Source: a virus
DNA length: 44,748 nucleotides
UHGV virus genome: UHGV-0124463
Strand: one strand, 5' to 3'
Shown: positions 13,382 to 37,984 of the stretch, piece by piece
Layout of the letters: each line of letters begins with the position of its first letter
Position numbering within the stretch: position 1 is the stretch's first letter
Made by a program: the position numbers and the translations under genes
Notes under the pieces: generated by a model
What the model was told of the DNA's origin: nothing
Database searches by the model: none
Seen by the model: the letters and a program-made list of their open reading frames with translations, nothing else

Positions 13382-15337
13382 ATGGCGTTAATTAGATTAG
13401 TAGCTCCAGAGCGGGTATTCTCCGACTTGGCGAGCATGGTAGCATATCCAAACTTTCAGGTACAGGACAAGATTATCCTGCTGGGCAGCGCCGGTGGGGA
13501 CTTCACCTTTACTACTGCCGCGTCGGTAGTGGATAACGGAACTGTGTTTGCTGTACCTGGTGGGTATCTACTCCGTAAATTCGTGGGTCCGGCATACAGC
13601 TCCTGGTTCAGCAATTGGGCGGGCATAGTAACGTTCATGAGCGCACCTAATAGGCACCTGGTTGTGGACACAGTCCTGCAGGCCACGAGTGTGCTCAACA
13701 TCAAAAGCAACTCTACGCTGGAGTTTACTGATACCGGAAGAATCCTGCCGGATGCCTCGGTTGCACGTCAAGTGCTTAACATTATCGGCTCGGCACCCTC
13801 GGCATTCGTCCCGTTAGCGGCGGATGCCACAGCGGGCAGCAAAGTCATTACGGTGGCTGCCGGGGCTTTGTCTGCGGTAAAAGGTACGTACTTGTATCTT
13901 CGCTCTAACAAGCTGTGTGATGGTGGTCCTAACACCTACGGTGTAAAGATTTCCCAGATTAGGAAAGTGGTGGGGGTTAGCACCTCCGGTGGCGTCACCA
14001 GTATTCGGCTGGATAAAGCGCTGCACTATAACTACTACCTGTCTGATGCCGCGGAAGTAGGTATCCCGACAATGGTGGAGAACGTAACCTTAGTATCCCC
14101 GTACATCAACGAGTTCGGCTACGACGATTTGAACCGGTTCTTTACTATCGGTATCTCTGCCAACTTTGCCGCGGACTTGCACATCCAGGACGGGGTTATT
14201 ATTGGCAACAAACGCCCCGGGGCTTCTGATATAGAAGGGCGTAGTGCTATCAAGTTCAATAACTGCGTAGATAGTACCGTTAAGGGTACGTGCTTCTACA
14301 ACATCGGATGGTACGGGGTAGAGGTGCTCGGCTGCTCAGAGGACACGGAAGTACACGATATCCACGCCATGGACGTACGCCACGCAATCTCTCTGAACTG
14401 GCAGAGCACTGCAGACGGGGACAAGTGGGGAGAGCCTATCGAGTTCTTAGGCGTTAACTGCGAAGCCTACAGCACAACCCATGCCGGGTTTGATACTCAC
14501 GACATTGGTAAGCGTGTGAAGTTCGTTCGCTGCGTTTCATACGACAGTGCTGACGATGGGTTCCAAGCGCGCACTAACGGGGTAGAGTACTTGAACTGTC
14601 GAGCTTACCGCGCAGCATTTGATGGGTTCGCCTCCAACACCGGTGTAGGCTTCCCTATCTATAGAGAGTGCTTAGCTTATGACAACGTACGCTCTGGCTT
14701 TAACTGTTCGTACGGTGGTGGCTACGTTTATGACTGTGAGGCTCACGGTAGCCAGAACGGTGTCCGCACCAACGGAGGTTGTGTTAAAGGCGGTCGGTAC
14801 ACTCGCAACTCCAGCTCTCACATCTTCGTCACTAAGGATGTAGCTGAGACGGCGCAGACGTCCCTGGAGATTGATGGCGTGAGCATGCGCTACGACGGTA
14901 CCGGAAGAGCTGTGTACTTCCACGGGACTATGGGCATTAACCCTACCATGGTATCTATGTCCAATAATGACATGACCGGTCACGGCTTGTCCTGGGCATT
15001 ACTGAGTGGCTACACTGTTCAACCTACGCCTCCGCGCATGTCCAGGAACTTACTGGATGACACAGGTATCCGTGGAGTGGCAACGCTGGTTGCTGGCGAG
15101 GCTACAGTCAACGCCCGTGTACGCGGAAACTTTGGCAGCGTAGCTAACTCCTTCAAGTGGGTGTCTGAGGTTAAGTTGACGCGGTTAACCTTTCCTTCTA
15201 GTGCTGGGGCCTTGACGGTTACTGGCGTAGCACAGAACCAGGATGTACCTACACCTAATCCGGACCTAAACAGCTTCGTGATTAGGAGTAGTAACGCAGC
15301 GGATGTATCCCAGGTAGCCTGGGAGGTGTATCTCTAA
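13382..15337 (+). CDS. tailspike / polysaccharide depolymerase candidate
   Basis: 651 aa, rich in Gly/Asn/Thr/Val with periodic beta-strand-like repeats and scattered Cys; placed after the lysis cassette. Confidence 0.45.
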   Translation: MALIRLVAPERVFSDLASMVAYPNFQVQDKIILLGSAGGDFTFTTAASVVDNGTVFAVPGGYLLRKFVGPAYSSWFSNWAGIVTFMSAPNRHLVVDTVLQATSVLNIKSNSTLEFTDTGRILPDASVARQVLNIIGSAPSAFVPLAADATAGSKVITVAAGALSAVKGTYLYLRSNKLCDGGPNTYGVKISQIRKVVGVSTSGGVTSIRLDKALHYNYYLSDAAEVGIPTMVENVTLVSPYINEFGYDDLNRFFTIGISANFAADLHIQDGVIIGNKRPGASDIEGRSAIKFNNCVDSTVKGTCFYNIGWYGVEVLGCSEDTEVHDIHAMDVRHAISLNWQSTADGDKWGEPIEFLGVNCEAYSTTHAGFDTHDIGKRVKFVRCVSYDSADDGFQARTNGVEYLNCRAYRAAFDGFASNTGVGFPIYRECLAYDNVRSGFNCSYGGGYVYDCEAHGSQNGVRTNGGCVKGGRYTRNSSSHIFVTKDVAETAQTSLEIDGVSMRYDGTGRAVYFHGTMGINPTMVSMSNNDMTGHGLSWALLSGYTVQPTPPRMSRNLLDDTGIRGVATLVAGEATVNARVRGNFGSVANSFKWVSEVKLTRLTFPSSAGALTVTGVAQNQDVPTPNPDLNSFVIRSSNAADVSQVAWEVYL

Positions 15338-15433
15338 GTAGCTCCCTGGGGTATCTCTATGGTATCCCGGGGCACTACTTGGGGTGCACGTCTATACCTG
15401 GACCTGAAATTTATTAGACTTTAAAATGAGGAT

Positions 15434-15895
15434 ATGTCTATGAACATCAAATATGACACAACATCCCCTAGCTGCTTGGTGTGGCTCAAGGGTAGGCGCG
15501 CCGGTGCTCCAGCGGGTACCCGCAACACTCGTGGCTACTGGGTGGTACAGGTATCTGGTAGAAAGATACAGGCACACCGCCTCATCTGGGAACTACACAA
15601 CGGGCCTATTCCAGACGGATATGTGGTGGACCACATCAACCAAAACCCCAGTGACAACCGCCTAGAGAACCTGCGCTTGGCTACTCTCAGTGAGAATAAC
15701 TGCAATGCTCGCAGGGCTGAGCGCGAACACCCTAGAGGCGTATACTACACTGGCACTTGCTGGCGCGGGGAGTTCTGGAAGGACGGTAAGCGTTATATGA
15801 AGAAGCACAGCTCCTACGAGGTTATCTGCAAGTGGGTACAAGAGAAACGTCAAGAGCAACACAAGGCCTTCACCCCGGGGCAGGTGTATATCTGA
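15434..15895 (+). CDS. HNH homing endonuclease with AP2-like DNA-binding domain
   Basis: Motif VVDHINQNPSDNRLENLRLATLSEN followed by GVYYTGTCWRGEFWKDGKRY. Confidence 0.75.
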   Translation: MSMNIKYDTTSPSCLVWLKGRRAGAPAGTRNTRGYWVVQVSGRKIQAHRLIWELHNGPIPDGYVVDHINQNPSDNRLENLRLATLSENNCNARRAEREHPRGVYYTGTCWRGEFWKDGKRYMKKHSSYEVICKWVQEKRQEQHKAFTPGQVYI

Positions 15896-16425
15896 AACCA
15901 AAAATTATTATACTCGCCCTTGGGCCTCCCTCACCCTCAGCGCGAGCAATTGCCCCCATAGGGGGTGCCTAGCGCATAAACAGAGGGGGTGGGGCCACCT
16001 AGGGCGCACTAGTAGGCACCAGCGGGCCTCAGCGGGCCTGTGCTGCGTTCTAGTGCTATCGCTAGTGCTACCCTATGGCTATCCCTGTGCGTTCACTAGG
16101 GCGCTTCCTGTGCGCTCTCTGTGGGCCATAGGGGTGCGCTCTGCCTTACCTATTTTGTGCGCCTCAGTGTGGCACCTAGGGGCGTGTCCATTGCTTATTT
16201 TGCGCGTCCATAGTGGGCCCGCCTAGTGCGCTGTAGTGCGTCACGGTGCTATCCCTAGTATGCACTAGGCGATCCACTGGCTATCCCTAGTGCTTTACAT
16301 TGTGCCGATTATATGCTACGCTGCGCGCTCCCCCCTAGGGCGCACATCCTCACCCAACACTATCCCGGCGCTATCTCTTTGCTATCCTTTTGCTCTTACT
16401 TTCATTCGAAAGCTGTCATGAAATG
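15896..16425. repeat. repeat-rich non-coding region (short direct repeats and recurring 10-mer CTAGGGCGCA); probable genome-terminus region
   Basis: No credible ORF; CTAGGGCGCA at 15999 and 16335 (9/10 at 16096; also 17330), tandem cagcgggcct x2, repeated ctagtgcta and ctatccct. Confidence 0.5.
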
Positions 16426-16442
16426 ATGTTACAGGAGTAGGA
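16426..16442 (+). promoter_or_regulatory. copy of 17-bp motif ATGTTACAGGAGTAGGA (candidate phage RNAP promoter)
   Basis: Exact match to copies at 4834..4851 and 37985..38002; in non-coding DNA. Confidence 0.4.
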
Positions 16443-16633
16443 GGGTTTTAGGGCACTATATACACACTACTTACTACTACTCACTAGTAGTCACTAGTAT
16501 CCCCTAGTAATGCCCTGTATGACTGACCGTAGGGAGGGAAGCATTACCTAGAATCTTGTAACCTCCGCTCCTATCCCTCCGGGATATCGTCGCTATGGTT
16601 ACGCTACTAATCACTATGTAAGGAGATATTGTT

Positions 16634-17020
16634 GTGGCTAGAACATTTAAGATTGTGGTTGATAAGGAAGGTTATCCAGTGATTAATGGTGCTGGGCCTG
16701 AGTATGTGAATAAGCGAGGTAAGAGAGACTATAAGACTGTGGCGCTGCATAGGGCCGTGGTTATGGATGCTCTGGGAATCACTAGCTACGGTTCTGGCTA
16801 TCACGTACATCACTGTGACAGTAACCGCCTTAACTGTGACTTCAATAACCTGATACTGGTTAGCGCTGACACTCACCGGGCCATACACTTAGCACAGATT
16901 CAGGAAGGGAGATGCTTCACAAAGGATGAGTTATTGGCTAGTCCTGAGTACGATACTAACTGGCGAGAGTTCTACGTGACTTATGGGGACTACAATAGTT
17001 TACTGCACGCAGACCTTTAG
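16634..17020 (+). CDS. HNH endonuclease
   Basis: GTG start after RBS TAAGGAGA; motif HVHHCDSNRLNCDFNNLILVSADTHRAIH. Confidence 0.6.
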   Translation: MARTFKIVVDKEGYPVINGAGPEYVNKRGKRDYKTVALHRAVVMDALGITSYGSGYHVHHCDSNRLNCDFNNLILVSADTHRAIHLAQIQEGRCFTKDELLASPEYDTNWREFYVTYGDYNSLLHADL

Positions 17021-17070
17021 GGGTCTGCTTACTCTTTTTGCTCCCAGTGATAAAAAGTTTAAAAAAGTAC

Positions 17071-17100
17071 TTGCTTCTTTTGGTTCAATAGGGCTATAGT
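17071..17100 (+). promoter_or_regulatory. sigma70-like promoter candidate (TTGCTT-N18-TATAGT) with A-rich upstream element
   Basis: Read directly; preceded by gataaaaagtttaaaaaag. Confidence 0.35.
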
Positions 17101-17202
17101 TCAATCACCGGGAGGCACTGAGGCGCTAACCGGGGCAGAGTCGGGAGATTCAGCCGGATTAAAGCTAGATAGTGTGAAGGGTTAGACACTCAATAAAAAG
17201 AG

Positions 17203-17231
17203 TTGACACCGCGAAGAACATAAGCTAGATT
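17203..17231 (+). promoter_or_regulatory. sigma70-like promoter candidate (TTGACA-N17-TAGATT)
   Basis: Consensus -35 hexamer and 17-bp spacer read directly. Confidence 0.45.
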
Positions 17232-17271
17232 GAATCCCGAAGTAAGCAGTAAGGCAGTAAGAAATAAACGC

Positions 17272-17300
17272 TTGACAAGTTCTGATTCACTGAGTAACTT
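17272..17300 (+). promoter_or_regulatory. sigma70-like promoter candidate (TTGACA-N17-TAACTT)
   Basis: Consensus -35 hexamer and 17-bp spacer read directly. Confidence 0.4.
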
Positions 17301-17650
17301 AGATAGCGAACAAGGCAAGGATAACCACTCTAGGGCGCAAGGATGTGTGTCCCGTCGGATTAGGCTAGACGTTAAAAATGACCTCTTAAAGGTTTAGTAG
17401 TAAGCTGGTTTGCGGGGAGGCCCAGTACCTTGACTGGTACGTTGACGACCCACCCCTAGACAATCAGTTAAAGAGTAAACGTGCCGGACGTTATCACCGG
17501 GGTTCTGAGGCAAACCATACTGCCGAGGCGAGAGCAGCTCGCTCCTCTGAATCGAGGGAACAAGGCGCGGAGTGTATCCCGCAAAGAGCATATAACATAG
17601 CGCAGCAGTAACAAGGTTGCGCTAGATTATGTTCTCTGAGAGGTAAGAGT

Positions 17651-17848
17651 ATGCGCAAATCAAAGCGTTTAGCATTACGGCGGAATATGCAATTATCACT
17701 GAATCCCACCGACGACGTGCCGCTTACTGTGAAGCCTAGCAAACAAGGGTTGAGCAGTGAGCACAGGGTGAGGGGAAAGCAAAAACAAAAGGGCAGTAGC
17801 AGGCAGCCATCTGGATGGCCTACTGTTAACTCCCAATTTGGTCGATAA
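17651..17848 (+). CDS. small basic hypothetical protein (first early ORF)
   Basis: 65 aa, Lys/Arg-rich, strong RBS GAGAGGTAAGAG before ATG. Confidence 0.4.
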   Translation: MRKSKRLALRRNMQLSLNPTDDVPLTVKPSKQGLSSEHRVRGKQKQKGSSRQPSGWPTVNSQFGR

Positions 17849-17919
17849 TTACAGCCTATAGCATCCTACGGGGTGCTATGTGAAGTAATTACCTAAACAA
17901 CCAATCAAAGAGGTGCATT

Positions 17920-18519
17920 ATGACCCATTCAACTGGTAAAGTATTCAAGCTCACCGCTGCGGGCAGCATTCGTAAAGCGCTGGGCGACGTAGTGGAAGCA
18001 AAGCGCAACATCACTATTAGCGCGCTCTTCCACGGCCTGATTAGCAGCAACGTTTCCTGGGCTATGGATATGCAGCGCAGCGATGCCGCGGACTTTGATA
18101 TGGTGCTGCGTACGCTGCTGCCAATCAAGTTCAACAAAGAGTCCGGCAAGTACGAATTCAACGCTAAGAAGTGCTATGCGTCGGCTGAAAAGCTGGGTAT
18201 CGAACTGGACAGTATGCGTCTGGATTACAAGCAAGCTGACAAGCAAGGCCGCGAAGTAATCGTAGCCAGCTTCTATAGCTCCTGTATGGCCCTGTACGCT
18301 GCCGAAGCGGAGCGGGTGAAGAATGACGCGCTGGATGCCGATGCAGTGCGCTTGCAAGCGCTGGGGCGCGTTAAAAACGCCATCAAGAAGGCTAAAGAGA
18401 CTGGTGTAAGCGATGCTGACCTCGTGTCTATGCTGGTATCGCAAGGCGTGGACGTACGCGCTGTACTGGACGCCGTGAATCTTGGCATTATCACCGATTG
18501 GAGACAACTCTATGGTTAA
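17920..18519 (+). CDS. hypothetical early protein
   Basis: 199-aa ORF with balanced composition, RBS-like AAAGAGG upstream. Confidence 0.5.
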   Translation: MTHSTGKVFKLTAAGSIRKALGDVVEAKRNITISALFHGLISSNVSWAMDMQRSDAADFDMVLRTLLPIKFNKESGKYEFNAKKCYASAEKLGIELDSMRLDYKQADKQGREVIVASFYSSCMALYAAEAERVKNDALDADAVRLQALGRVKNAIKKAKETGVSDADLVSMLVSQGVDVRAVLDAVNLGIITDWRQLYG

Positions 18520-18775
18520 CGTATTCAACATCATTGTGACCAGCGCTATGCTGGTGCTGGGCAACGACATAAACAACCCAATCCCATACTGCACTGTGCA
18601 GTTGCAGCAACCGGCAACGCAGGAGCCGCAGCCGCGCCCTGAGTATGACCTCTTTGAAGACCCCGAGGGTGGTTGCAAAGAGCTGGGCGCACGTATCCTT
18701 GCGGCGGTGCAGGGGCAGTACCCGGACGCTGCGGTAACGCTCACGGTGGATGGTAAGAGCAATAACGAAATTTGA
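18512..18775 (+). CDS. hypothetical early protein (acidic, N-terminal hydrophobic segment)
   Basis: ATG at 18512 overlapping upstream stop; track ORF 18482..18775. Confidence 0.4.
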   Translation: MVNVFNIIVTSAMLVLGNDINNPIPYCTVQLQQPATQEPQPRPEYDLFEDPEGGCKELGARILAAVQGQYPDAAVTLTVDGKSNNEI

Positions 18776-18784
18776 GGTGGGGGC

Positions 18785-18964
18785 ATGCACGGAAAGAATC
18801 CTGAAACGCTGCTGATGCGTAAGCAGCAACCAACAATCGACAGGCTGGCGCGGGAGTACAACGCGAAGGCAGCGCTGCGCCAGCACTATGAGAAACAAGC
18901 AAAGCGCCTGGGTATGACCCTGCGCGGCTACTGCTTCCGGTTTAATGTGCGGGGTGTAGTATGA
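18785..18964 (+). CDS. hypothetical small early protein (59 aa)
   Basis: ATG preceded by GAGGTGGGGG; stop overlaps next ATG (ATGA); below the ORF-track length cutoff. Confidence 0.3.
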   Translation: MHGKNPETLLMRKQQPTIDRLAREYNAKAALRQHYEKQAKRLGMTLRGYCFRFNVRGVV

Positions 18965-19179
18965 GCAAGCAGGACATTTATGACGTATATAAGCGCCCTA
19001 ATGGGTTTCTTTACCGGGTACCTCTATGTAGTCCACTGCACGCCCTCGCAGAATTCTATGCAGAGGAGACTAGACTGTGGTTGCCGTCCAGTCACACAGT
19101 TGGCGGGGTGGTAATGCTAAGTTGTAGCACCCTTGTGGCCCGCAACGTGGTATTCAAGGATAGCGCATGCTCACAGTAG
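18961..19179 (+). CDS. hypothetical early protein
   Basis: 72-aa ORF in tight tandem with neighbours. Confidence 0.4.
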   Translation: MSKQDIYDVYKRPNGFLYRVPLCSPLHALAEFYAEETRLWLPSSHTVGGVVMLSCSTLVARNVVFKDSACSQ

Positions 19180-19511
19180 ACGAAACAGCGCTGCTGTGCT
19201 GGCGTCTGCTGGAAACGCAGGGCAAGTGCGGTTGCACTTGGGAAACATTCAAAGAGGTTCCTAATGAACTCAAGCAAATCGTGCCAGTTGAGCGTCGATT
19301 ACTCCGAGTTAGAAAAGAGGATATTGGCACTGTTCTCACAACCTATCGAGAGTACACTGAGTCTGCCGCGCGGAAGCTGCAAGAGCACATTGCATTCGAT
19401 GTGGTTGCAGCACTACGGCGGAATGGATACCGCGGAGCTTTTAAGCAATTTAGAGCCGCAGTCCGCGCCTATTATAAGCAGCAACAACTCTCCGCGTGGT
19501 ACGCACGCTGA
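19167..19511 (+). CDS. hypothetical early protein
   Basis: 114-aa ORF with protein-like balanced composition; overlaps upstream stop by 13 nt. Confidence 0.4.
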   Translation: MLTVDETALLCWRLLETQGKCGCTWETFKEVPNELKQIVPVERRLLRVRKEDIGTVLTTYREYTESAARKLQEHIAFDVVAALRRNGYRGAFKQFRAAVRAYYKQQQLSAWYAR

Positions 19512-19542
19512 ACTCTTAGTGCATGACGAAGTTCTATTAACT

Positions 19543-21234
19543 CGGGAGCAAATGAAAATGCAAGAAACTAACACAGCACCTATCGAATGGAAAGTAGTGT
19601 TACCGGAAGGTGCAAACGCACTGCCGATTAAAGAATCAATGTATTCCAGCGGTGATTACTGGACCCCGTTCCAGGACTTGCAAATGCAAGGGGAGGACCA
19701 TCCCCACACTGAGGGTCCGCTGCAGGTGCTTATGGGTCTCCGCACTGTCAGTGCGCACACTCCAGGCTTAGAGGTGACTATAGGCGGGGCACTGCACCCA
19801 GAGTATCGCGAATCAACGATGACGCTCGGCCCGTTGCAAAAGGTGGACCTGTACCGGTCCGGAACTTTCTGCGAACTCTTTGAACCGGTGCGAATCACCA
19901 TAGACAGCAAGTTCTGGGAACGCCGCCGCGACTTCTATGAGGGCGAGGATGTAGTGGTTGAGCGCGTAGTTGCTTGCGTCGAAGAATTCACAGGTTACAA
20001 GGTGCACAAGCAGGCCGTGCAGTTATTTGAGCGCATCATGCTTGCACCAGAAGAGCAGCAGCGCCGCTTATACACTGGCTACGATTACGGCCGCCACACC
20101 CGCGATGGCAACTTAGCTGCGCTGCTCATGAAGTTGCACGGCTTCGTAGTGTCTAGATTCGCCGTGCCTTTGGGCTTTGGTTTCCGCAACGGCGAACCTA
20201 TCGTGATGCTGGGGCAGCCGCGGATGCACAAGGACTTCGCAGCAGTTACTGAGTACCGCTGCGTAGAGATGCGCGTAGGTAAGTGGCTCGCTAACTACTA
20301 CGGAAATGGTGTGGACTTCCGCGATGCTATCGAAGACCTCAAGGCTATGAACGTAGACCCTACAACGTACCTGTGCAAGACCGAGCAGGAATGGTACGAC
20401 GCCTACGAGAATGGCCCGGGTAGCTGCATGAGCGGGTACTCATTTGAGCATAGCTCTGTGCGGACGTACGCTACCACCAGCCACGGGTTGCCGGATAATG
20501 GGCTGCGCCTGTTCATCCAGTACACCGGGGAGCTGTTCGGCGACGATTTCGAAGTGCAGGCACGGGCAATCGTTAACACAGAAACTAACGAGTACGTCCG
20601 CGCTTACGGCAACGCTGCGGATGCAATCCTGCGGGGGCATGGGTACACCAAAAACATTGAATGTCTCGAAGGGGTAATGCTGGCGCGAATACCGCACCCA
20701 ACATACAACGGCGCAGTGCTGATGCCATACCTAGATAGCAGCCAGTGCGGCGTAGATGAGTATGGGGATGATGCCTTTGTAATCCGTGATGCTTATGAGT
20801 ACGAGGCACAAGACTCAGAAGGATACATCTACGTAGGCACTGAGTCTGCTCGGTGCTGCTGCTGTGAATGTCGCCACTCTGTAGATGACATGCAGGAGAC
20901 CGCAGATGGTGATATGGTCTGCGACGGCTGCGTAGAAGAAGGGGATTTTGTGTACGTAGTTGGGCGTGATGGTCTGCATAATCGCTGGAGCTGCACCTGG
21001 TCTGATTACCACGACGCCTATGTATACGACGAGGACATAGAGCGCTGCGAAGTAGAGGGTGTAGTGCACGACCAAGAGGAACTGGTGTTTGCACAGGACC
21101 GGCAAGTGCTTATTGAGCACGCAGAAGAACACCCAGTGCACGGGTTAATTCTCACTGAGCATGCAGCTGATTGCTTGGGAGAGAAGTACCTGGGCAACGA
21201 TGAAGATGAAGAAGAAGCAGAGGAGGCAGCTTAA
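19543..21234 (+). CDS. large acidic early protein with cysteine cluster, unknown function
   Basis: Start chosen at ATG 19543 (RBS GGGAG); the track ORF extends to 19264 but that extension is Ser/Pro-rich and overlaps 19167..19511; CCCCECRH...CDGC cluster; acidic tail DEDEEEAEEAA. Confidence 0.5.
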   Translation, partial: REQMKMQETNTAPIEWKVVLPEGANALPIKESMYSSGDYWTPFQDLQMQGEDHPHTEGPLQVLMGLRTVSAHTPGLEVTIGGALHPEYRESTMTLGPLQKVDLYRSGTFCELFEPVRITIDSKFWERRRDFYEGEDVVVERVVACVEEFTGYKVHKQAVQLFERIMLAPEEQQRRLYTGYDYGRHTRDGNLAALLMKLHGFVVSRFAVPLGFGFRNGEPIVMLGQPRMHKDFAAVTEYRCVEMRVGKWLANYYGNGVDFRDAIEDLKAMNVDPTTYLCKTEQEWYDAYENGPGSCMSGYSFEHSSVRTYATTSHGLPDNGLRLFIQYTGELFGDDFEVQARAIVNTETNEYVRAYGNAADAILRGHGYTKNIECLEGVMLARIPHPTYNGAVLMPYLDSSQCGVDEYGDDAFVIRDAYEYEAQDSEGYIYVGTESARCCCCECRHSVDDMQETADGDMVCDGCVEEGDFVYVVGRDGLHNRWSCTWSDYHDAYVYDEDIERCEVEGVVHDQEELVFAQDRQVLIEHAEEHPVHGLILTEHAADCLGEKYLGNDEDEEEAEEAA

Positions 21235-22289
21235 TGTTCTTGAATCCGCACGGGATTGATATGCAGCTGCTCTTGCAGATACTGCAAACGCACCGGCCTA
21301 GCTGGGGTAGCACTAAGTGGTTCGAGCCGCTGCTTATGCAGTCGCTACAGGCACTTGGTAGCGGTGTGCACTACGTAAAGGATAAGCACGGGAACTACTT
21401 CGTGCTGGTGGGAGACTCAGAGCAAAGCGACGTAGCGTTTACATCGCACCTCGATACGGTGGCCCGTCCTGGTAGTGCAGCCCCGGACGTTGGTTGCACT
21501 AACAAGGGCATACTGTTCGTAAAGAATCCGCAACAAGCTGACTGCTTGGGGGCGGACTGCGGTGCTGGTATCTACCTGATGCTGGAGATGCTGCGGCGGG
21601 GTGTGCACGGACGCTACTGCTTCTTCGTGGATGAAGAGGTGGGCTGCGAAGGCAGCGCTGCATCGGTCAAGGATGACACTGGATTTTGGACTGGTGTCAA
21701 GGCGATGATTAGCTTTGACCGCCGCGGAGATGGTATCATTACGCACCAGCGGTACATGCGCTGCTGCTCTGATACCTTTGCCAAGACTCTGGCAGAGCGC
21801 CTAGGACGCACGGAGCAGCACTTACAAAAGGGTGTGTATACTGACTCAGCCGAGTTCGTCGGCATCATCCCTGAGTGCACCAACGTCGGTGTAGGGTACA
21901 TGCACGAGCACACTCCGGATGAGGTACTGGACCTGAACATCCTGGGGCAAGTGCTTGAGCGGGTACTGCAAGATGGTACGTTCTCGCACCTTCCGATTGA
22001 GCGGGACCCGAAGGTAGTAGAGACGGACCAATGGCTCTCTACATCTACTCTGAGTTTCCGGCAGCCGTGGGACATGCCCCCGGACGAGGACCCGCAATTG
22101 CTGGCTGCGTTCCGTGTAGTGTCACAGCTTTCTAAACAGCAACTGATTAGCTGGGTGCAGGAGAATCCAGAGAAGGCGGCGGAGTACATCATGGTGTTCT
22201 CCGATTATGGCTTCAAAGAGGAGCTGATTGAACTAGGCACCCGAGTCGTAGAAGACTGGGGCGGATACGATAATATTGTGGAGGGTTGA
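21234..22289 (+). CDS. metallopeptidase candidate (M20/M28-like zinc hydrolase motif set)
   Basis: Ordered motifs HLDTV, GADCGAG, DEEVGCEGS, and a later HEH; 351 aa. Confidence 0.4.
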   Translation: MFLNPHGIDMQLLLQILQTHRPSWGSTKWFEPLLMQSLQALGSGVHYVKDKHGNYFVLVGDSEQSDVAFTSHLDTVARPGSAAPDVGCTNKGILFVKNPQQADCLGADCGAGIYLMLEMLRRGVHGRYCFFVDEEVGCEGSAASVKDDTGFWTGVKAMISFDRRGDGIITHQRYMRCCSDTFAKTLAERLGRTEQHLQKGVYTDSAEFVGIIPECTNVGVGYMHEHTPDEVLDLNILGQVLERVLQDGTFSHLPIERDPKVVETDQWLSTSTLSFRQPWDMPPDEDPQLLAAFRVVSQLSKQQLISWVQENPEKAAEYIMVFSDYGFKEELIELGTRVVEDWGGYDNIVEG

Positions 22290-22738
22290 TTATGTCTAAA
22301 CTTTTTCAAGTGGGTGATAAGGTTCAGCGCATCAATAAGATTGAAGGTAAGACCATGCGCGGCGAGATAGTCACTAAGGGGCCTGGCCTCTGTATAGACA
22401 TCAAGCTAACCGAAGGAGCAGGGATTCGTTATGCCGGGGATATCTATGGCGGCTCTGCCGACTTCTGGCAGCTAATCGAGGAGGCGGACGAGCTGCCACC
22501 GGTTCCGTCTAGTGTAGCATATTTAAACACTAAACGAGACCCAGGAAACGACCAGCGGCTGGTATTAGAAAAGGACAGCGAGACTAACGAAGGACTACTA
22601 TACATCGGAATAGTGCCTAGAAAAGGCAGCACCCGGGCAGAGCGAGAGATTGGTATTAATATGAGCCCCGATTCAGCCCTGCAGTTGGCACATGACATTC
22701 GTCGAATGGCTATGAAAGTTAAGCGAGAGATTCAGTAA
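22286..22738 (+). CDS. hypothetical protein
   Basis: 150-aa ORF overlapping neighbours by 4 nt and 1 nt. Confidence 0.45.
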   Translation: MIMSKLFQVGDKVQRINKIEGKTMRGEIVTKGPGLCIDIKLTEGAGIRYAGDIYGGSADFWQLIEEADELPPVPSSVAYLNTKRDPGNDQRLVLEKDSETNEGLLYIGIVPRKGSTRAEREIGINMSPDSALQLAHDIRRMAMKVKREIQ

Positions 22739-23529
22739 TGGACCAGCCCTGGCTTAGAGCGTGCAAGCGCCTGGCCGTGGGGCAGAGGGCACGCTTTCGG
22801 TGCTGCGGCAGGGACGCCGCCGGGGTGCTCTACAATAACCCTGATGCCTGGGAATACTATTGCCACCGCTGTAAACAGGTGGGCAAGGAGCACAAGCAGT
22901 ACCAGCGCATACAGTTACAGGAAGAGCCGAGGGTGCAGCCCTCTGCACCTGCAGATGCAATTTGCATTAGCCAAGCGCCTGCGGAAACGCAGAGTTTTCT
23001 TTACGGATTCCTGACCACAAAGGGAATCATGCCTGAAATGGTGGAGGATGCAGAATGGAGCAAAGAGAAACAGCGGATAATATTCCGTGTCGGAAGCGCT
23101 GCTCTGGGCCGTGCAGTGCATGCCCGACAGCAACCGAAGTGGGTAATGTACGGCCAGCCAATGCCGTTCGCTGCCGCGGCACCTGCCGTAGCGCCGGATG
23201 TAGCTGCGGCCGCACCTCTAAAGGTCGTGCTCACCGAGGACTATCTATCAGCGATCAAATATCAGCACGCGATTACGAACTACTCTGCAATGAACGTGCA
23301 GGCTATAGCTATGCTGGGTACTCGCTTGCCCGTGCAGTTAAGGGCGTGGCTGATACAGAACAAACCGACAGTGATACTGTCCCTGGATAATGACCAAGCG
23401 GGACACTCCGGCGCGGCCATGATACGGCGCGCGCTACGTCCCTTTATGTCGTGCCACGAAATCTACTACGACGGGGACCCAAAAGAGGCAACAATACAGG
23501 AGTTATTAGATGGTATTAGGCGCGTGTAA
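22738..23529 (+). CDS. DNA primase (zinc-ribbon + TOPRIM)
   Basis: N-terminal CCGRD...YYCHRC zinc-binding motif; TOPRIM-like TEDYLSAIKYQH and LSLDNDQAG. Confidence 0.65.
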   Translation: MDQPWLRACKRLAVGQRARFRCCGRDAAGVLYNNPDAWEYYCHRCKQVGKEHKQYQRIQLQEEPRVQPSAPADAICISQAPAETQSFLYGFLTTKGIMPEMVEDAEWSKEKQRIIFRVGSAALGRAVHARQQPKWVMYGQPMPFAAAAPAVAPDVAAAAPLKVVLTEDYLSAIKYQHAITNYSAMNVQAIAMLGTRLPVQLRAWLIQNKPTVILSLDNDQAGHSGAAMIRRALRPFMSCHEIYYDGDPKEATIQELLDGIRRV

Positions 23530-23947
23530 AGAGCACAAACAGAAAGGCGGACCAAAGGGTTACGGAAATACCCCGTTCAAAGGGCGGAAGATACCCCTGC
23601 ATAGAGAGGTGTATTGCTCGGCGAACGATATATCTCCGGAGAGCATAGTGGGGCTAGTTGTGCGCCATAAGTGTGACAACCCGAGATGTATTAATCCCGA
23701 GCATTTAGAATTAGGTACGGTCAAGGATAACGTCCATGACTGTATTGCCCGGGGTAGGGCTAGACGTGGAGTTTCTAAAGGGGAGCAGAATGGGTACTCC
23801 AAGCTAACAGCGCAGCAGGTGGACTATATCAGGAAGACCTACAGGCGGTACAGCAGGGAACACGGCACACCGGCCATAGCTGCTAGCCTTGGTGTAAGTG
23901 TGTCAGCAGTGCACGATGTATTGAAAGCTAAAACTTGGAGGCTCTAA
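23510..23947 (+). CDS. HNH homing endonuclease (paralog 1 of 3)
   Basis: Motif LVVRHKCDNPRCINPEHLELGTVKDNVHD; overlaps primase 3' end. Confidence 0.7.
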   Translation: MVLGACKEHKQKGGPKGYGNTPFKGRKIPLHREVYCSANDISPESIVGLVVRHKCDNPRCINPEHLELGTVKDNVHDCIARGRARRGVSKGEQNGYSKLTAQQVDYIRKTYRRYSREHGTPAIAASLGVSVSAVHDVLKAKTWRL

Positions 23948-25228
23948 TTGGATCTAATAGTTGTTCGTGCGATGTGCACGCAGAAGGTTTGGAACCGACT
24001 GCGAGAGCAGATTCCTAAGTCGATGCTTGCGCCGGATACGTCGAACCTTCTGGACTGGGTGGGGCTGTACTGGAACACGTACCCGGAGCACCAGGAGGTT
24101 CAGTGGGATGCAATGCAGAGCATGCTCAATCTCCGGGCGGGACACCTATCCCGGGAAGAGCGGGTAATCATGGACGAGCTTATGCGGGGAGTACAAGCCG
24201 TACCGCAGGATTCTGTGGTGGGGATTGTCCAGACCCTGAATGAGCTGGCCTACAGCGGAGAGGTGGCGGCGCTGACGCAACGCTACCAAGACGGCGAGGA
24301 GATTGATTACCTCCTGGAGATGAAGCACCTACAGCGCAAGTACGGTGATGGCGCTGCGGTGCATGAGTCGCTGCTTGAATGGGAGAGCGGTAGTGTTGAC
24401 GAGATACTTGCCGCGACTGATGAGAGCGGCGGTCTTAAACTGGGCGTGTTCGAGCAACTCGCTAGCAACATCCGAGGTCTACGTGGCGGGGACTGTATCG
24501 CAGTGGCTGCTCCTGTGGACTCTGGTAAAACTAGTCTGCTTGCTGCTATTGCTGTGGATTTTGCTGAGCAAATGCAGCAGCAGCCGGAAGTGTACGGAGA
24601 CCGCCCGATTCTCTGGCTGGTTAACGAAGGTCCGGCGACGCGCACAGTGCCGCGGGTATATCAAGCGGCGCTGCACTGGACTCTGGCTGAGATTAAGGAC
24701 CGGCACAGTAAGCAAGAGTTCGTGCCAGCCTACCTCAAGAAAGTAGGCAGGGCTGACCGGATTCGTGTTAAGGCTGCGCATTCCTTGACTATGGCGCAGA
24801 TATCCACGCTCATGGAGGAGATGCGCCCTGCGGTAATCATCATCGACATGGTGGCGAACATCCGTGGCGGCACTATGGAGACCGAGCACCAGAACCTCGA
24901 GGCGAAATGGCAGGAGCTGCGCATACTTGGGTGCGAGAACGATTGCGCTATTGTAGGCACTATGCAGCTTTCACTCGAAGGTTACAACATGCTGTTCCCG
25001 CCACTCACCGCTATGAAGCAGAGCAAGATTGGTGTACAGGGTGCCTTGGACTTAGCTATTATGATGGGGTGCTTGGACAGAAACGAGCAGCCGCACATGC
25101 AAAACGTACGCGGTATCAGTACTCCGAAGAACAAGATGGCACTATCTGGTAAAGAATCGCTCCTGCAATTCGAGGTGGGATTCGAGCCGGGTCGTTGCCG
25201 CTTTGACGAAGGCCAGATTAACCGGTGA
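23948..25228 (+). CDS. replicative DNA helicase (DnaB / T7 gp4 helicase-domain-like)
   Basis: Walker A AAPVDSGKTSLL; RecA-fold helicase motifs; 426 aa. Confidence 0.75.
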   Translation: MDLIVVRAMCTQKVWNRLREQIPKSMLAPDTSNLLDWVGLYWNTYPEHQEVQWDAMQSMLNLRAGHLSREERVIMDELMRGVQAVPQDSVVGIVQTLNELAYSGEVAALTQRYQDGEEIDYLLEMKHLQRKYGDGAAVHESLLEWESGSVDEILAATDESGGLKLGVFEQLASNIRGLRGGDCIAVAAPVDSGKTSLLAAIAVDFAEQMQQQPEVYGDRPILWLVNEGPATRTVPRVYQAALHWTLAEIKDRHSKQEFVPAYLKKVGRADRIRVKAAHSLTMAQISTLMEEMRPAVIIIDMVANIRGGTMETEHQNLEAKWQELRILGCENDCAIVGTMQLSLEGYNMLFPPLTAMKQSKIGVQGALDLAIMMGCLDRNEQPHMQNVRGISTPKNKMALSGKESLLQFEVGFEPGRCRFDEGQINR

Positions 25229-25280
25229 CTTCCCTAGCGCCTTCTATGAGGGCGCTATGTAGGTACAATAGGAGGCTACT

Positions 25281-25436
25281 ATGCTTAAACCGTCAGACAT
25301 TAACTACCTCGATGAAGAGGTAATCAAGGCGTACGCTGCATCTGCAGGTACTTTCCGTAAACAGTTTGCACTGGACAGCAGCCAGCTGATTGTGCATCTG
25401 GCGATTAATAAGGCTCGGAGGGCTAATTGGAAATGA
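25281..25436 (+). CDS. hypothetical small protein (51 aa)
   Basis: ATG preceded by AGGAGG; stop overlaps the HNH ATG. Confidence 0.3.
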   Translation: MLKPSDINYLDEEVIKAYAASAGTFRKQFALDSSQLIVHLAINKARRANWK

Positions 25437-25882
25437 CAGGTTGTATTGACCACGGACAGAAGGGAAGCACTTGCCGAGGAAAGGGCGCTGGGTATGGCCG
25501 CTCCAGATTTGACGGGAAGACAACTGGCAGCCACCGCAAAGCATACTGTGTAGCTCACAACTTGAAGCTGAGCGATATCGCGGGACTTGTAGTCCGGCAT
25601 TCGTGCGACAATCCTCGGTGCATAAATCCGGAGCACCTGCTACTAGGGACTTCTAGCGATAATATGCAGGACCGAAATAAAGGTGCGCGTAATTTGCTGG
25701 GCAGCCGCAACCCTGCTGCCAGACTTACCCCAGAAGACGTGCACAGCATACGAGAAGCATACGCTGGCGGTGAGACCCAGGTATCTATAGCGAGACGCTT
25801 CGGGACAAGTCAAGGATACATATCTAATATCATAAAGGGGAGGGTATGGAATGAGCAGAAGCATCCTGATAACGGATTATGA
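25433..25882 (+). CDS. HNH homing endonuclease (paralog 2 of 3)
   Basis: Motif LVVRHSCDNPRCINPEHLLLGTSSDNMQD; track ORF 25427..25882, ATG at 25433 after GGAGGG. Confidence 0.7.
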   Translation: MTGCIDHGQKGSTCRGKGAGYGRSRFDGKTTGSHRKAYCVAHNLKLSDIAGLVVRHSCDNPRCINPEHLLLGTSSDNMQDRNKGARNLLGSRNPAARLTPEDVHSIREAYAGGETQVSIARRFGTSQGYISNIIKGRVWNEQKHPDNGL

Positions 25883-28229
25883 GACGCAAAACCACCCATA
25901 TTACGGTAGTGTTGCTTCCCCGTACTGTCCGGATAATTACATCGTAGAATCAGCGTGGCGTATTGACCGCACGCACGATGACGGTACGGTAGAAGTAGGC
26001 CCCGTAGAGAGTGTACGGTATAACAGTCGCGCGCACTTTGAAGCGGCACCTGTATCAGAATGGCTCCCAATACCAGCTGACTGTTGGCTGATTGTGGCTC
26101 ACAACGCCGCATATGAGATTAGCTGGTTCCTAACCTTTGCGCGCGCCGAGTTTGAGGCCTTCCTAAAGCGGGGAGGTCGCGTATTCTGTACGATGCATTC
26201 TGAGTACATCGCCTCGGACTTTCAGAGCATGTATCCGTCGCTGGACGAGACGGCTCCTAAGTACGGTGGTACGCACAAAGTAGACGGGGTTAAGATTCTA
26301 TGGGAGCAGGGTGTGTTAACCTCCCAGATTGACCCGATGCTGCTGCATGACTACCTGGTTAACGGGGACATCCCGAACACGGCTCTGTGCTTCTACGGTC
26401 AGTGCGCTACGTTCGCCCAGCGCAATCAGATGCAGTACGTGTGGGAGCGCATGGATGCTCTGCTAGCCTGGGCGTACTGCGAATGGTTCGGCCTGTTCGT
26501 TAATATGCCAATTGCGCGCAAGAACCAAGAGGAGCAGGAGCAGCGCATCCGCGAGATTAAGCAGGAGCTGCAGCAGTACATCCCTAAGGACTTGCCGGAG
26601 GCACTGGATTTCAACTTCGGTTCGGACTTTCATATGTCTGCACTGGTGTACGGTGGGCCTATCAAGTACCGCAAGAAGGTGCCCTATGACCCTCCTCAGT
26701 ACGTCAAGTACGATGCCTACTTAGCAGACGTCAATGGAACGTTGCAGTATATTGATGTGTCCGACTGGCAGCCAGAATGGACGTACCCGCGGACACTGTA
26801 TAAGTCCGGCAAGAACAAGGGGCTTCCCAAAGTGTTCCGCCTTGATACCGAGGAGGAGAAACTTAAGTGGGAGGATGACCTTTACTTCTGCCCGGGCCTA
26901 GTGAACATCCAGGAGCTGCCGGAAGTTATCCGGGAGAAGTACACAGAGCGCGGAGAGTTCCGGCAGGCGCGGAACCTGCAGGATGACACTCCTGTGTATA
27001 GTACCAGCACTGACGCAATGGAGGCACTGGCTCGCCAAGGTTTCGAGTTCTGTAAGTTGGTGAACGAGCTGGCGGCGCTGGAGAAGGACACTGGAACTTA
27101 CTACTTGCGTGAAGTTCTGGACGCAGAGGGTAAAGTCAAAGAGCGGAAGGGCATGTTACAGTACGTAATCCCTGAGCGTCCTGATGGTTCTGGCATCATA
27201 CACCACCGACTGAATACCTGCGCCACCGTAACCGGGCGCTTGAGTAGCTCTAACCCGAACCTGCAGAACCTACCCCGCCCGGATGAGGATGGGGATGGGG
27301 TAGCTAAATCCAAGGTGAAGCAGGTATTCACCAGCCGATTCGGGGATAACGGACGCATCACTGAGGTTGACTACTCGGCGCTGGAAGTGGTTATGTCCTG
27401 CGTGCATACGGGGGACACCAAACTACTGGGGCTGCTGCAGGGCGGCACGGATATGCACTGTTACCGCCTAGCTTTCCGCGAGGAACTGCCGTATGAAGAA
27501 GTGTATGAGCGCTGCCACAACAAGAAGCACGAGCTGCATCCGCTTTGGAAGGCAATGCGTACAGGTATTAAGGCTCCTAGCTTCGCAGCCCAGTATGGCG
27601 CTACGGCTAAGGGGATTGCGTTTGCTACTGGATGTACGGTGGAATTCGCACAGGCTTTCTTGGACAACGAGGCTGCGCTGTTCCCGCAAACAATTGGCTT
27701 CCGCGCTGTTATCAAGGAAGAAGTAGAGCGCACCGGGGCAGCCGGGCGCATGTACCGCGAGCAGGCTGACGATGGCAGCTACCGAGTCTACCGCATCGGG
27801 ACGTGGACTAGCCCAGCAGGTGCCCGCTATAGCTTCCGCCAGAAGGAGCAGTGGAAAGAGGTTGTGCCTGGGCAGCGTAAGCAGAAGGTAATGGACTACA
27901 AGGAAACAGAGATGGCTAACTACTGGTGCCAGGGGGAAGCATTCTTCCTGATGGCGGTAGCCGCCGGTATGGTTCTGCGTGCACTCCTGGCCCGTGACTG
28001 GTTCGACAATCAGGTGTGCCTGATTACGAACGTGCACGATGCGTTGTATCTGGACAGCGCCAACCCGGAGGTTGGACGTGAGGCGAGCCTGCTGGTTAAG
28101 CAGTGCATGGAGGATGCACCTAAGCGTATTCACCAGCTCTGGCCTAACTACGGCATCATTGGTGAGGTCCCGTTCCCGGCGGAATGTGAGATGGGGGTAA
28201 GCATGTATGCCAAAGAGAAAATTGAGTGA
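25851..28229 (+). CDS. DNA polymerase, family A, with 3'-5' exonuclease domain
   Basis: Exo motif ITDYET; pol motifs DYSALEVV, RTGIKAPSFAAQYG, NVHDALYLD; 792 aa. Confidence 0.85.
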   Translation: MSRSILITDYETQNHPYYGSVASPYCPDNYIVESAWRIDRTHDDGTVEVGPVESVRYNSRAHFEAAPVSEWLPIPADCWLIVAHNAAYEISWFLTFARAEFEAFLKRGGRVFCTMHSEYIASDFQSMYPSLDETAPKYGGTHKVDGVKILWEQGVLTSQIDPMLLHDYLVNGDIPNTALCFYGQCATFAQRNQMQYVWERMDALLAWAYCEWFGLFVNMPIARKNQEEQEQRIREIKQELQQYIPKDLPEALDFNFGSDFHMSALVYGGPIKYRKKVPYDPPQYVKYDAYLADVNGTLQYIDVSDWQPEWTYPRTLYKSGKNKGLPKVFRLDTEEEKLKWEDDLYFCPGLVNIQELPEVIREKYTERGEFRQARNLQDDTPVYSTSTDAMEALARQGFEFCKLVNELAALEKDTGTYYLREVLDAEGKVKERKGMLQYVIPERPDGSGIIHHRLNTCATVTGRLSSSNPNLQNLPRPDEDGDGVAKSKVKQVFTSRFGDNGRITEVDYSALEVVMSCVHTGDTKLLGLLQGGTDMHCYRLAFREELPYEEVYERCHNKKHELHPLWKAMRTGIKAPSFAAQYGATAKGIAFATGCTVEFAQAFLDNEAALFPQTIGFRAVIKEEVERTGAAGRMYREQADDGSYRVYRIGTWTSPAGARYSFRQKEQWKEVVPGQRKQKVMDYKETEMANYWCQGEAFFLMAVAAGMVLRALLARDWFDNQVCLITNVHDALYLDSANPEVGREASLLVKQCMEDAPKRIHQLWPNYGIIGEVPFPAECEMGVSMYAKEKIE

Positions 28230-28686
28230 GTGTATTAATCATCCCGGAGGTATGTTCCCTTCTGGGTACGGTGCTAAATGGTGGCTAGGAGCCACCAGAA
28301 AGGCCCACCGGGTGGCGTATTGCCAGGCGCACGGTCTGCTGCCGGAGGATATAGAGGGTATCATAATCCGACACAAGTGCGACAATAGGGCATGCGTAAA
28401 CCCAGACCACCTGGAGCCGGGAAGCCATGCCGACAATATGCGGGACATGGTTGAGCGAGGACGCTCGGCGATGGGCGTTCGTAACAGCAAGGCCAAACTA
28501 ACGCCTGAGCAAGTAGCCGAAATACGCCGAACGTTTGTACCCCAATCCACGGAGTACGGCTCAGTGGCTCTAGGCCGGTTGTATGGGGTGAGTAACAGCA
28601 CAATCAACCGCATAGTGCGTGGACTCTATTGGGTAGCAGAGGCTGAGATGGGTACGAGTATGTACAGTAAGGAGAAGGTAGAATGA
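28207..28686 (+). CDS. HNH homing endonuclease (paralog 3 of 3), ending in a polymerase-tail-like peptide
   Basis: Motif IIIRHKCDNRACVNPDHLEPGSHADNMRD; last 16 aa AEAEMGTSMYSKEKVE mirror the polymerase C-terminus AECEMGVSMYAKEKIE. Confidence 0.7.
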   Translation: MPKRKLSECINHPGGMFPSGYGAKWWLGATRKAHRVAYCQAHGLLPEDIEGIIIRHKCDNRACVNPDHLEPGSHADNMRDMVERGRSAMGVRNSKAKLTPEQVAEIRRTFVPQSTEYGSVALGRLYGVSNSTINRIVRGLYWVAEAEMGTSMYSKEKVE

Positions 28687-28904
28687 GTATAAAGTCTGGC
28701 AGTGTTGTGGAGTTGATGGACCTGGGGCCTGAGCCGATAGACCCGCGGTATGCAGCATACTTCACCCCGGGTACGAGGCACACGGTTATGTTCTTCGACC
28801 CGGTTACTGGGGAGATAGAACTAAGTTATCCTGGACTAGTAGTAAGTAGACCGGGGGATGGTGTTACCTTCTTCCCGGGGGAGTACAAGCTTATCGTGGA
28901 ATAG
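28683..28904 (+). CDS. hypothetical protein
   Basis: 73-aa ORF with strong RBS AAGGAGAAGG. Confidence 0.4.
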   Translation: MSIKSGSVVELMDLGPEPIDPRYAAYFTPGTRHTVMFFDPVTGEIELSYPGLVVSRPGDGVTFFPGEYKLIVE

Positions 28905-28961
28905 TGATAGGTGGACCCTTGGGTGGTGTAGGGGGTTAGGGTAGCATGGAAATACACTAGG

Positions 28962-28996
28962 GTCAACTAAATAATTAAATAAAATTATTTGTTGAC
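28962..28996. promoter_or_regulatory. AT-rich imperfect palindrome (GTCAAC-T-AAATAATT-aaataa-AATTATTT-GTTGAC); candidate operator or origin element
   Basis: Inverted repeat read directly; lies in a ~160-bp non-coding AT-rich gap. Confidence 0.35.
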
Positions 28997-29065
28997 TCTG
29001 GCTTGATTCTGTGATTCCCAGCAAATTAATGTGATACGAGTAGGAACAACACAAGAGAGGCAACC

Positions 29066-30109: not shown

Positions 30110-30131
30110 TACAGGAAAGAGATTCCGCGGT

Positions 30132-30635: not shown

Positions 30636-30656
30636 ACTAAACGAGGACGTAATTAT

Positions 30657-31490: not shown

Positions 31491-31781
31491 TTGGACATTG
31501 TTGGAGGGAACATGAAAGCTGTACGCTTGACTGTGAGTCTGTATGACATTGATGAACACGCTCAGAAATTTATGAGTCGGTTGGGGGTAGAGTACGGTTT
31601 GGCAGTCCCACAGAGTATTGCTGACTGTTGGCAATTTTATATGTGCGACTATGACCCGAATACGCTGCCGGGTTTCGTGGATGTAAGAAACGATATAGAC
31701 CCTATGCGGTTGGTGGGTTATGGTTTGAGTCAGGGGAATGCCATAAATATTGTCAAGTGGATGGAAGAAAATAATTTATAG
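31491..31781 (+). CDS. hypothetical protein
   Basis: 96-aa ORF; start may be the internal ATG after GGAGGGA. Confidence 0.35.
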   Translation: MDIVGGNMKAVRLTVSLYDIDEHAQKFMSRLGVEYGLAVPQSIADCWQFYMCDYDPNTLPGFVDVRNDIDPMRLVGYGLSQGNAINIVKWMEENNL

Positions 31782-31865
31782 GCAACTGCGTAAACCTCGT
31801 GCCACAAGCCTAATCAACCCTAACATAAACTAATACGGCCCCTCAGAGGGCCTTAGAGGAAGCTT

Positions 31866-32715: not shown

Positions 32716-32717
32716 TA

Positions 32718-35504: not shown

Positions 35505-35510
35505 GGGGCC

Positions 35511-37976: not shown

Positions 37977-37984
37977 AAAATTTA

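Follow-up and report, generated by a model that had tools for sequence, protein, structure and literature searches.

Tandem sigma70-type early promoters predicted at the left end of a KP34-like Klebsiella phage genome, with homology to the T7 A1-A2 region

Introduction

The viral genome UHGV-0124463, analyzed here as one stretch of 44,748 nucleotides (nt) that is referred to as the window, carries three co-directional sites near the left end of the phage genome that resemble promoters of the bacterial sigma70 RNA polymerase. The question raised by this locus is whether these sites, here called P1, P2 and P3, are the promoters from which the host polymerase starts transcription of the early genes. 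A first-pass annotation of the sequence had proposed such a cluster upstream of the early genes, and this interpretation is backed by the rank of the sites, the pattern of their conservation and their relationship to phage T7. The region 17046-17308 is very probably the early promoter cluster of a KP34-like phage, used by the host sigma70 polymerase, because P2 and P3 rank highest in the genome, the promoter hexamers are fixed while the spacers vary, and the P1-P2 region is homologous to proven promoters of T7.

A megablast search with 16000-18000 retrieves 247 phage records, nearly all of them Klebsiella phages of the genus Drulisvirus (KP34-like; Autographiviridae, Slopekvirinae). No GenBank phage record in the collection searched is identical to the window, and the closest ones have 91-93% identity. 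All long open reading frames (ORFs) of the window are on the plus strand, with the gene for the single-subunit RNA polymerase at 35511-37976, immediately 5' of the structural genes, and the tail fibre gene at 13382-15337. From this gene order, the window is a circularly permuted genome of a KP34-like Klebsiella phage (Drulisvirus).

Three sites in tandem

The first-pass annotation had described three sites, two of them with a TTGACA -35 box and a 17-nt spacer, and all of these are found in the sequence exactly where it had placed them:

17046-17070, plus strand: UP-like A/T-rich element of P1 with two phased A-tracts (AAAAA at 17052-17056, AAAAAA at 17061-17066)
17071-17100, plus strand: P1, TTGCTT (17071-17076), N18, TATAGT (17095-17100); predicted start A17107
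17203-17231, plus strand: P2, TTGACA (17203-17208), N17, TAGATT (17226-17231); predicted start about 17238-17240
17272-17300, plus strand: P3, TTGACA (17272-17277), N17, TAACTT (17295-17300); predicted start about 17306-17308

P1, P2 and P3 all have the T-12, A-11 and T-7 of sigma70 promoters, and these positions are invariant in relatives. The spacers of 18, 17 and 17 nt, respectively, are constant in length in the 43 related loci described below, while their sequences vary. TAGATA at 17300 was considered as an alternative -10 box for P3 and rejected, since the spacer would then be 22 nt.

The A-rich element that had been noted upstream of the 17071 site is also present. The 25-mer upstream of P1 is 80% A+T, which places it in the top 0.14% of all 25-mers in the window, and its A-tracts are kept in relatives, including a divergent subgroup, and align with the A-tract upstream of T7 A1. 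Between -60 and -36, the A+T fraction is 0.80 for P1, 0.64 for P2 and 0.60 for P3, compared to 0.46 for the genome. An A/T-rich region between -40 and -60, the optional UP element of such promoters that is characteristic of strong ones, is therefore present, and its A-tracts are conserved. The UP consensus used for comparison reportedly goes back to Estrem et al. 1998. P2 is preceded by an A-tract at 17195-17199 and P3 by an A-rich stretch at 17261-17269. The leader before the first early gene at 17651, put at about 350 nt in the first-pass annotation, measures about 344 nt from the predicted P3 start.

Rank and adjacency

The sites were scored with our own position weight matrix, made from the classical hexamer frequencies of Hawley-McClure and Harley-Reynolds. 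Among the roughly 89,000 positions on both strands, P2 (16.1 bits), P3 (14.0 bits) and P1 (10.8 bits) take ranks 1, 2 and 20. No other sigma70 match scores as high as P2 and P3, which share a strand and are separated by 69 nt within the non-coding left end; the probability that the two top-ranked sites would be adjacent by chance is estimated at about 200/89,500, or about 0.2%. The same matrix gives 12.3, 14.5 and 15.3 bits for A1, A2 and A3 of T7, with starts placed within 1 nt of their annotation, so that the scores of P2 and P3 fall in the range of proven T7 promoters.

Chance levels were taken from 300 dinucleotide-preserving shuffles of the window scored with this matrix. The top score is 16.14 bits or higher in 12% of the shuffles, a shuffled genome has 1.8 sites with 13.97 bits or more, and 30 +/- 6 sites of at least 10.81 bits are expected, compared to 20 observed. 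A promoter scan accepts only the 17203 site among the three, and it reports 2 promoter-like sites in 14000-21000 (6.0 +/- 2.3 in shuffles) and 7 in 18000-37999 (14.5 +/- 3.9 in shuffles). The genome is thus depleted of sigma70-like sites. Taken alone, the scores are compatible with chance: P2 and P3 head the ranking, but P1 stands far down, the scan passes a single site, and shuffled sequences reach similar scores.

Fixed hexamers and variable spacers

Conservation was examined in 43 related left ends, made up of 3 GenBank records and 40 IMG/VR contigs. The contigs were picked through a conserved gene at 17920, so that the promoters played no part in the choice. A P1-type site (TTGCTT-N18 followed by TATAGT or TATATT, with a single TTACTT variant) is found in 43 of 43 loci, and so is a P2-type site. 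P2 is predicted to be the main promoter.

When distinct sequences are compared, using probes that reach 15 nt beyond each promoter on both sides, 5 of 36 hexamer columns vary, compared to 70 of 142 columns in the spacers and flanks (Fisher p = 6e-5). For P1 by itself, one of the 12 hexamer columns varies, as against 12 of the 18 spacer columns. Variation in the -10 boxes is confined to the tolerant middle positions (TAGATT/TAGCTT/TATAGT and TAACTT/TACCTT/TAAATT).

Six loci (L007, L021, L025, L026, L041 and L043) make up the divergent subgroup, in which the spacers and the sequence between the promoters are unrelated to those of the window. This subgroup keeps the A-tract and CTTGCTT-N18-TATA(T/G)T, followed 126 nt on by TTGACA-N17-TATAGT.

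An alignment-free profile of 12-mers shows 17050-17310 to be conserved at least as well as the neighboring protein-coding gene, while 17310-17390 is not conserved. Among 50,697 GenBank phage records, the P1 block is found in 215, the P2 block in 217 and the P3 block in 199, nearly all of them from Klebsiella Drulisvirus. Conservation also takes in the sequence just upstream of P2:

17155-17202, plus strand: conserved block 5' of P2 that takes in the A-tract at 17195-17199; near-invariant in 37 loci and aligned with T7 nt 546-588

Relationship to T7 A1 and A2

The window from 17050 to 17230 is collinear with T7 nt 441-618, with an alignment score of 40 compared to 20.2 +/- 2.8 for shuffled sequences; none of 500 shuffles reaches the observed score. 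In this alignment, the A-tract, -35 box and -10 box of T7 A1 match those of P1, and the A2 upstream block, TTGACA and -10 box match P2. The alignment of P1 with A1 includes the start region CCATCGA, and a six-way alignment agrees with the pairing of P1-P2 with A1-A2.

In the divergent subgroup, a stretch of 55-57 nt in the P2 region shares 93-95% identity with T7 541-597 (94.7% over 57 nt, E = 2e-20), a segment made up of the A2 upstream region and the A2 -35 box. The P1 start region of the subgroup, TATATT-TATCCCATCGAAAGCGATACGG, matches the A1 start region of T7, GATACT-TACAGCCATCGAGAGGGACACGG, at a collinear distance. The T7 module is found in 484 phage records, which include many genera of Studiervirinae as well as Drulisvirus genomes such as Henu1_2. 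Together, the collinear alignment and the identity of the subgroup to T7 show P1 and P2 to be homologous to A1 and A2, a closer relationship than mere resemblance.

About 50 nt upstream of the A2-type promoter are kept from T7, T3 and many other Studiervirinae genera to Drulisvirus, which exceeds the apparent need of an UP element. The early leader has no significant similarity to T7 750-925.

Promoters of the phage polymerase

A promoter for the phage's own RNA polymerase is found to the left of the cluster:

16424-16439, plus strand: KP34-type phage RNA polymerase promoter TGATGTTACAGGAGTA, an exact match to the strong KP34 promoter S2 of Lu et al. 2019 (PMC6834552)

Matches to T(A/G)ATGTTACAGGAGTA with at most two mismatches occur only at 4833-4848, 16424-16439 and 37983-37998, and all three are exact copies; at the same threshold, there is no KP34-type polymerase promoter within 17071-17300. 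The copies are located in the non-coding left end (16424), directly after the polymerase gene (37983) and inside an ORF of 1232 amino acids (4833). The left-end copy lies upstream of P1-P3, in the place held by phiOL in T7 (405, upstream of A1). Relatives have the variant TGAAGTAACCGGAGTA at the left-end site.

Alternative explanations

Several observations weigh against a cluster of three working host promoters. By themselves, the consensus scores could arise by chance. P1 has a low score, a poor -35 box and a rank of only 20, and the P3 -10 box, TAACTT, matches the consensus at only 3 of 6 positions. P3 is present in 31 of the 43 loci and missing from 12, including KP34 itself, and it is predicted to be an optional, dispensable third promoter. 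When P3 is compared with the A3 region of T7, 75 of 1000 shuffles reach the observed score and homology is not demonstrable; the resemblance to the T7 early promoters that had been pointed out in the first-pass annotation is homology for P1-P2 and A1-A2 (0 of 500 shuffles), but is not significant for P3 and A3. Conservation reaches well past the needs of a promoter, into the 48-nt block 5' of P2 and the initially transcribed regions, and part of it may serve another function. Literature searches turned up neither mapped starts nor reporter or rifampicin experiments for any Drulisvirus. One could argue that the three sites are chance consensus matches in a stretch conserved for packaging, replication or DNA ejection, since shuffles reach similar scores at appreciable frequency, the scan shows no excess of sites and the left end has other conserved blocks. 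However, the two top-ranked sites are adjacent and co-oriented, the hexamers are fixed where the spacers vary, the signals survive in the subgroup with divergent sequence, and the module is homologous to experimentally proven T7 promoters, which makes a chance origin extremely improbable. A narrower and less remote alternative, although still rather unlikely, is that only P2, perhaps together with P3, works, and that P1 is conserved for some other reason, for example as a DNA or RNA element at the left-end boundary, its hexamers being incidental. The 10.8 bits and rank 20 of P1 are of a level for which 30 +/- 6 sites per genome are expected by chance, its -35 box TTGCTT matches 4 of 6 positions and is followed by an 18-nt spacer, it is missing from both the predictions of Eriksson et al. 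2015 (Viruses 7:1804; PMC4411677) and the annotation of phage KpV475, and its conservation runs on for about 25 nt downstream of the -10 box. Yet the -35 box and the -10 box (TATAGT/TATATT) are fixed in 43 loci against a background of variable spacer columns, the divergent subgroup has kept the site together with the A-tracts and the spacer of 18 nt, the alignment of P1 with T7 A1 takes in the start region, and few 25-mers of the window are as rich in A+T as the one upstream of it.

Infection might also be started from 16424 by a phage RNA polymerase carried in the virion, in which case the sigma70-like sites would be auxiliary or vestigial. Two further points that count against the host-promoter cluster belong here: a strong promoter of the KP34 type lies upstream of the cluster in the same direction, and the polymerase (g36) was detected by liquid chromatography-tandem mass spectrometry in purified particles of the close relative fHe-Kpn01 (PMC7291057, Table S2). 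The location of the polymerase gene, 18 kb from the left end, would also fit. However, the fHe-Kpn01 list comprises 29 proteins and includes evident non-structural ones, such as a peptidase, so that carry-over of the polymerase is likely. T7 shares the order of phiOL followed by A1 and nevertheless relies on the host polymerase, the sigma70 promoters at the left end of phage LUZ19 are active, and if the sigma70 hexamers were unused, it would be hard to explain why they have been under purifying selection throughout the genus and as far back as T7. A virion-borne start is accordingly considered very unlikely, and recruitment of the host polymerase by the cluster is the explanation followed below.

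A model for early transcription

In the proposed scheme, the left end of the genome would enter the cell first. The Klebsiella sigma70 holoenzyme would then bind to the three co-directional promoters, P1 with its UP-like A-tracts, P2 as the strongest, and P3, and transcribe rightward, passing through about 340 nt of leader before reaching the early genes. The layout of the genome, with all genes on one strand and the polymerase gene 18 kb downstream, is consistent with this scheme.

Host transcription from the cluster probably supplies both the early and the middle genes, as sigma70-like sites are few elsewhere, with no other good one ahead of the polymerase gene at 35511, and a scan of 18000-37999 turned up no convincing intrinsic terminator on the plus strand in the stretch from the early promoters to that gene. 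Later, the phage polymerase would take over and initiate at its own promoters (16424, 37983 and 4833).

In T7, the A1-A3 array acts as an "internalisation signal" through which the host polymerase draws the genome into the cell (PMC11863960). By analogy, the cluster in the window may double as such a signal, with transcription pulling in the remaining genome, and a role in genome entry is plausible here as well.

The leader, the first genes and RNA elements

The transcribed region downstream of P1 contains several conserved or folded elements:

17133-17154, plus strand: hairpin GGCAGAGTC-GGGA-GATTCAGCC with a GNRA loop, in the P1-P2 interval
17398-17468, plus strand: leader block of about 70 nt, near-invariant in 38 of 44 sequences and the highest peak of 12-mer conservation (0.73)
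17585-17637, plus strand: folded element in the leader (-26.1 kcal/mol, z = -4.5)
17651-17848, plus strand: first conserved early gene, 65 amino acids (phrog_32970, E = 1e-42)
17846-17891, plus strand: intercistronic hairpin with an internal loop; the motif that Eriksson et al. 2015 called a "putative phage promoter" (z = -3.6)

Compensatory double changes are seen at two pairs of the hairpin between P1 and P2, which also has a conserved internal mismatch, and G-U pairs occur on the plus strand only. This support comes from a direct tally of variants; a consensus fold of the mixed alignment was set aside, since the divergent subgroup was misaligned in it.

In relatives, the 17398-17468 block directly follows P3, or P2 where P3 is missing. 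Its consensus fold has an outer stem (17403-17409/17462-17468) and a GUACC/GGUAC hairpin with one compensatory pair, with modest covariation support. The block, which every early transcript would carry in its 5' leader, is probably a structured RNA. A fourth promoter in this block (TTGACT/TTGACG with TAGACA/GACAAT) was considered and rejected, as it would need spacers of 21-23 or 9-11 nt and its distance shifts by 1-3 nt among relatives.

The leader also contains a GTG-initiated ORF of 39 codons (17481-17600) that is 95-100% conserved in 13 loci, with so few substitutions that coding and non-coding constraint are indistinguishable. A search of 15300-19000 against Rfam at E <= 1 gave no match, so that the leader is not explained by known RNA families, and a tRNA search found no tRNAs. 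The ORF at 17651 is the first with a Shine-Dalgarno sequence and a good ribosome-binding site, and tblastn finds homologues at the same position in 43 of 43 loci.

It is possible, if unlikely, that the promoter cluster is embedded in conserved cis elements that do more than recruit the polymerase. Candidates might be the block of about 50 nt 5' of P2/A2, the GNRA hairpin between P1 and P2, and the 17398-17468 block. Phage HK022 offers a precedent in its put RNAs, which convert the host RNA polymerase to a processive, termination-resistant form. Elements of this kind might render the host polymerase processive and resistant to termination, or stabilize the early transcripts, and thereby cover the roughly 18 kb to the polymerase gene.

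In the hairpin at 17846-17891, an internal loop that is fixed (AGCC/UGAA) separates an upper stem of 10 bp from a lower stem of 7-8 bp. The lower stems of three versions of the hairpin (TAATTAC, TAGTAGCA and GGTTAAT) are wholly different yet complementary, and the upper stem covaries between A-U and G-C. Hairpins of this type always lie 10-30 nt 5' of the following gene's ribosome-binding site; the window has one copy and relatives have two. The motif was inactive with the KP34 RNA polymerase in vitro (Lu et al. 2019, PMC6834552). By its architecture, which is similar to that of the early RNase III sites of T7, the hairpin could be an RNA processing or stability signal, possibly of the RNase III type. 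A literature search found no paper that links the 2015 motif to RNase III-type sites.

The left end of the genome

The position of the cluster relative to the end of the genome can be read from annotated relatives, and several other features lie between the two:

15929-16170, plus strand: direct terminal repeat, present as a single collapsed copy, approximate; the annotated repeats of KpV41, AttikonH4, KpV475 and VKV295 map here
16634-17020, plus strand: HNH endonuclease gene, an insertion (PHROG HNH families; low 12-mer conservation; annotated in VKV295 and AttikonH4)
17009-17028, plus strand: terminator-like hairpin and T-run at the end of the HNH cassette, just 5' of P1 (-13.6 kcal/mol, z = -2.7)

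Since the terminal repeats of the four relatives start at 15929 or 15968 and end at about 16170, the physical left end is placed at about 15929-15968. The promoter cluster then lies 1.14-1.37 kb to the right of the left end, of which about 0.45 kb is the HNH insertion. Only a minority of relatives carry this insertion, which shifts the promoters away from the end by that length; in relatives, the promoters are about 0.65-1.05 kb from the left end.

The sequence CCCCCATAGGGGGTGCCTA at 15953-15971 is part of a palindrome in the terminal repeat and has one mismatch to T7 nt 26-44. Its offset from the mapped left end is 25 nt, the same as that of its T7 counterpart. The genome ends are flanked by two HNH endonuclease genes, at 15434-15895 and 16634-17020. 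In relatives L007 and L025, the place of the 17009-17028 hairpin, just 5' of P1, is occupied by a different terminator hairpin.

A further sigma70-like sequence, TTTACA-N17-TACGCT (10.3 bits), is located at 16294-16322, between the terminal repeat and the phage-polymerase promoter, in a block that 43 of 44 sequences have kept. This site may be a fourth, minor host promoter, or its conservation may have a different cause.

Significance

Early promoters are the switch that starts the infection, and they determine in which hosts the early genes are expressed; the equivalent sites in T7 also drive genome entry. For the engineering of KP34-like phages and for their use in therapy, the cluster would supply useful parts, in the form of host promoters that are presumably strong and of control points in the life cycle.

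A promoter cluster at this place is already known, being a published and expected element of the genus. Compared to the literature, what appears to be new is P1 as a conserved and apparently undescribed third member. Two further results go beyond published work: P1 and P2 are homologous to T7 A1 and A2, in two subfamilies with little nucleotide similarity elsewhere, and the motif listed as a "phage promoter" in 2015 has the behavior of a conserved RNA hairpin. These findings do not alter the overall view of how T7-like phages begin transcription.

Comparison with known systems

Among Drulisvirus phages, sigma70 host promoters were predicted by Eriksson et al. 2015 (Table 3) for KP34, SU503, SU552A, NTUH-K2044-K1-1 and F19. 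P2 is identical to the 29-mer TTGACACCGCGAAGAACATAAGCTAGATT listed for KP34 and SU552A, and P3 is identical to the 29-mer TTGACAAGTTCTGATTCACTGAGTAACTT listed for NTUH-K2044-K1-1. Unlike the present analysis, those predictions were made by consensus matching alone, with neither the conservation footprint nor the homology to T7. In the record of KpV475 (KX211991), both P2 and P3 are annotated as promoters, 69 nt apart as in the window. P1 is absent from Table 3 and from the KpV475 record, and no description of it was found in the phage literature searched.

The closest parallel in a well-studied phage is T7 (A1-A3, Dunn and Studier 1983; NC_001604). In both phages, the promoters are located 0.5-1.3 kb from the left end and follow a terminal repeat and a promoter of the phage polymerase (phiOL at 405 in T7, 16424 here). 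Both have three tandem, rightward sigma70 promoters with near-consensus -35 boxes, spacers of 17-18 nt, imperfect -10 boxes and A-rich upstream sequence, followed by a non-coding leader before the first gene and by irregular hairpins between the early cistrons. As in a T7-type cluster, the sites in the window lie in tandem near the left end, pointing rightward, between the terminal repeat and the gene at 17651. The distance between A1 and A2 is 128 nt, compared to 132 nt between P1 and P2. The two systems differ in the gap that follows, which is 124 nt between A2 and A3 and 69 nt between P2 and P3, and in that P3 is optional. They also differ in the location of the polymerase gene, about 2.4 kb away in T7 and 18 kb away here, from which it follows that host transcription presumably runs much further than in T7. 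The scan of 18000-37999 showed no early terminator like TE, another difference from T7.

The phiKMV-like Pseudomonas phage LUZ19 provides an experimental counterpart (Putzeys et al. 2024, PMC10914365). Five starts (P002-P006) were mapped at its left end, of which four are sigma70-like and active in reporters. LUZ19 differs from the KP34-like phage in its host and in having five starts rather than three, and its starts were mapped and tested with reporters, whereas the sites in the window are known from their sequence. In other respects, the two genomes are organized alike: in both, the polymerase gene is located beside the structural genes, a tandem cluster of sigma70-like promoters is found at the left end, and phage-specific promoters are placed right after the polymerase gene and within the structural region.

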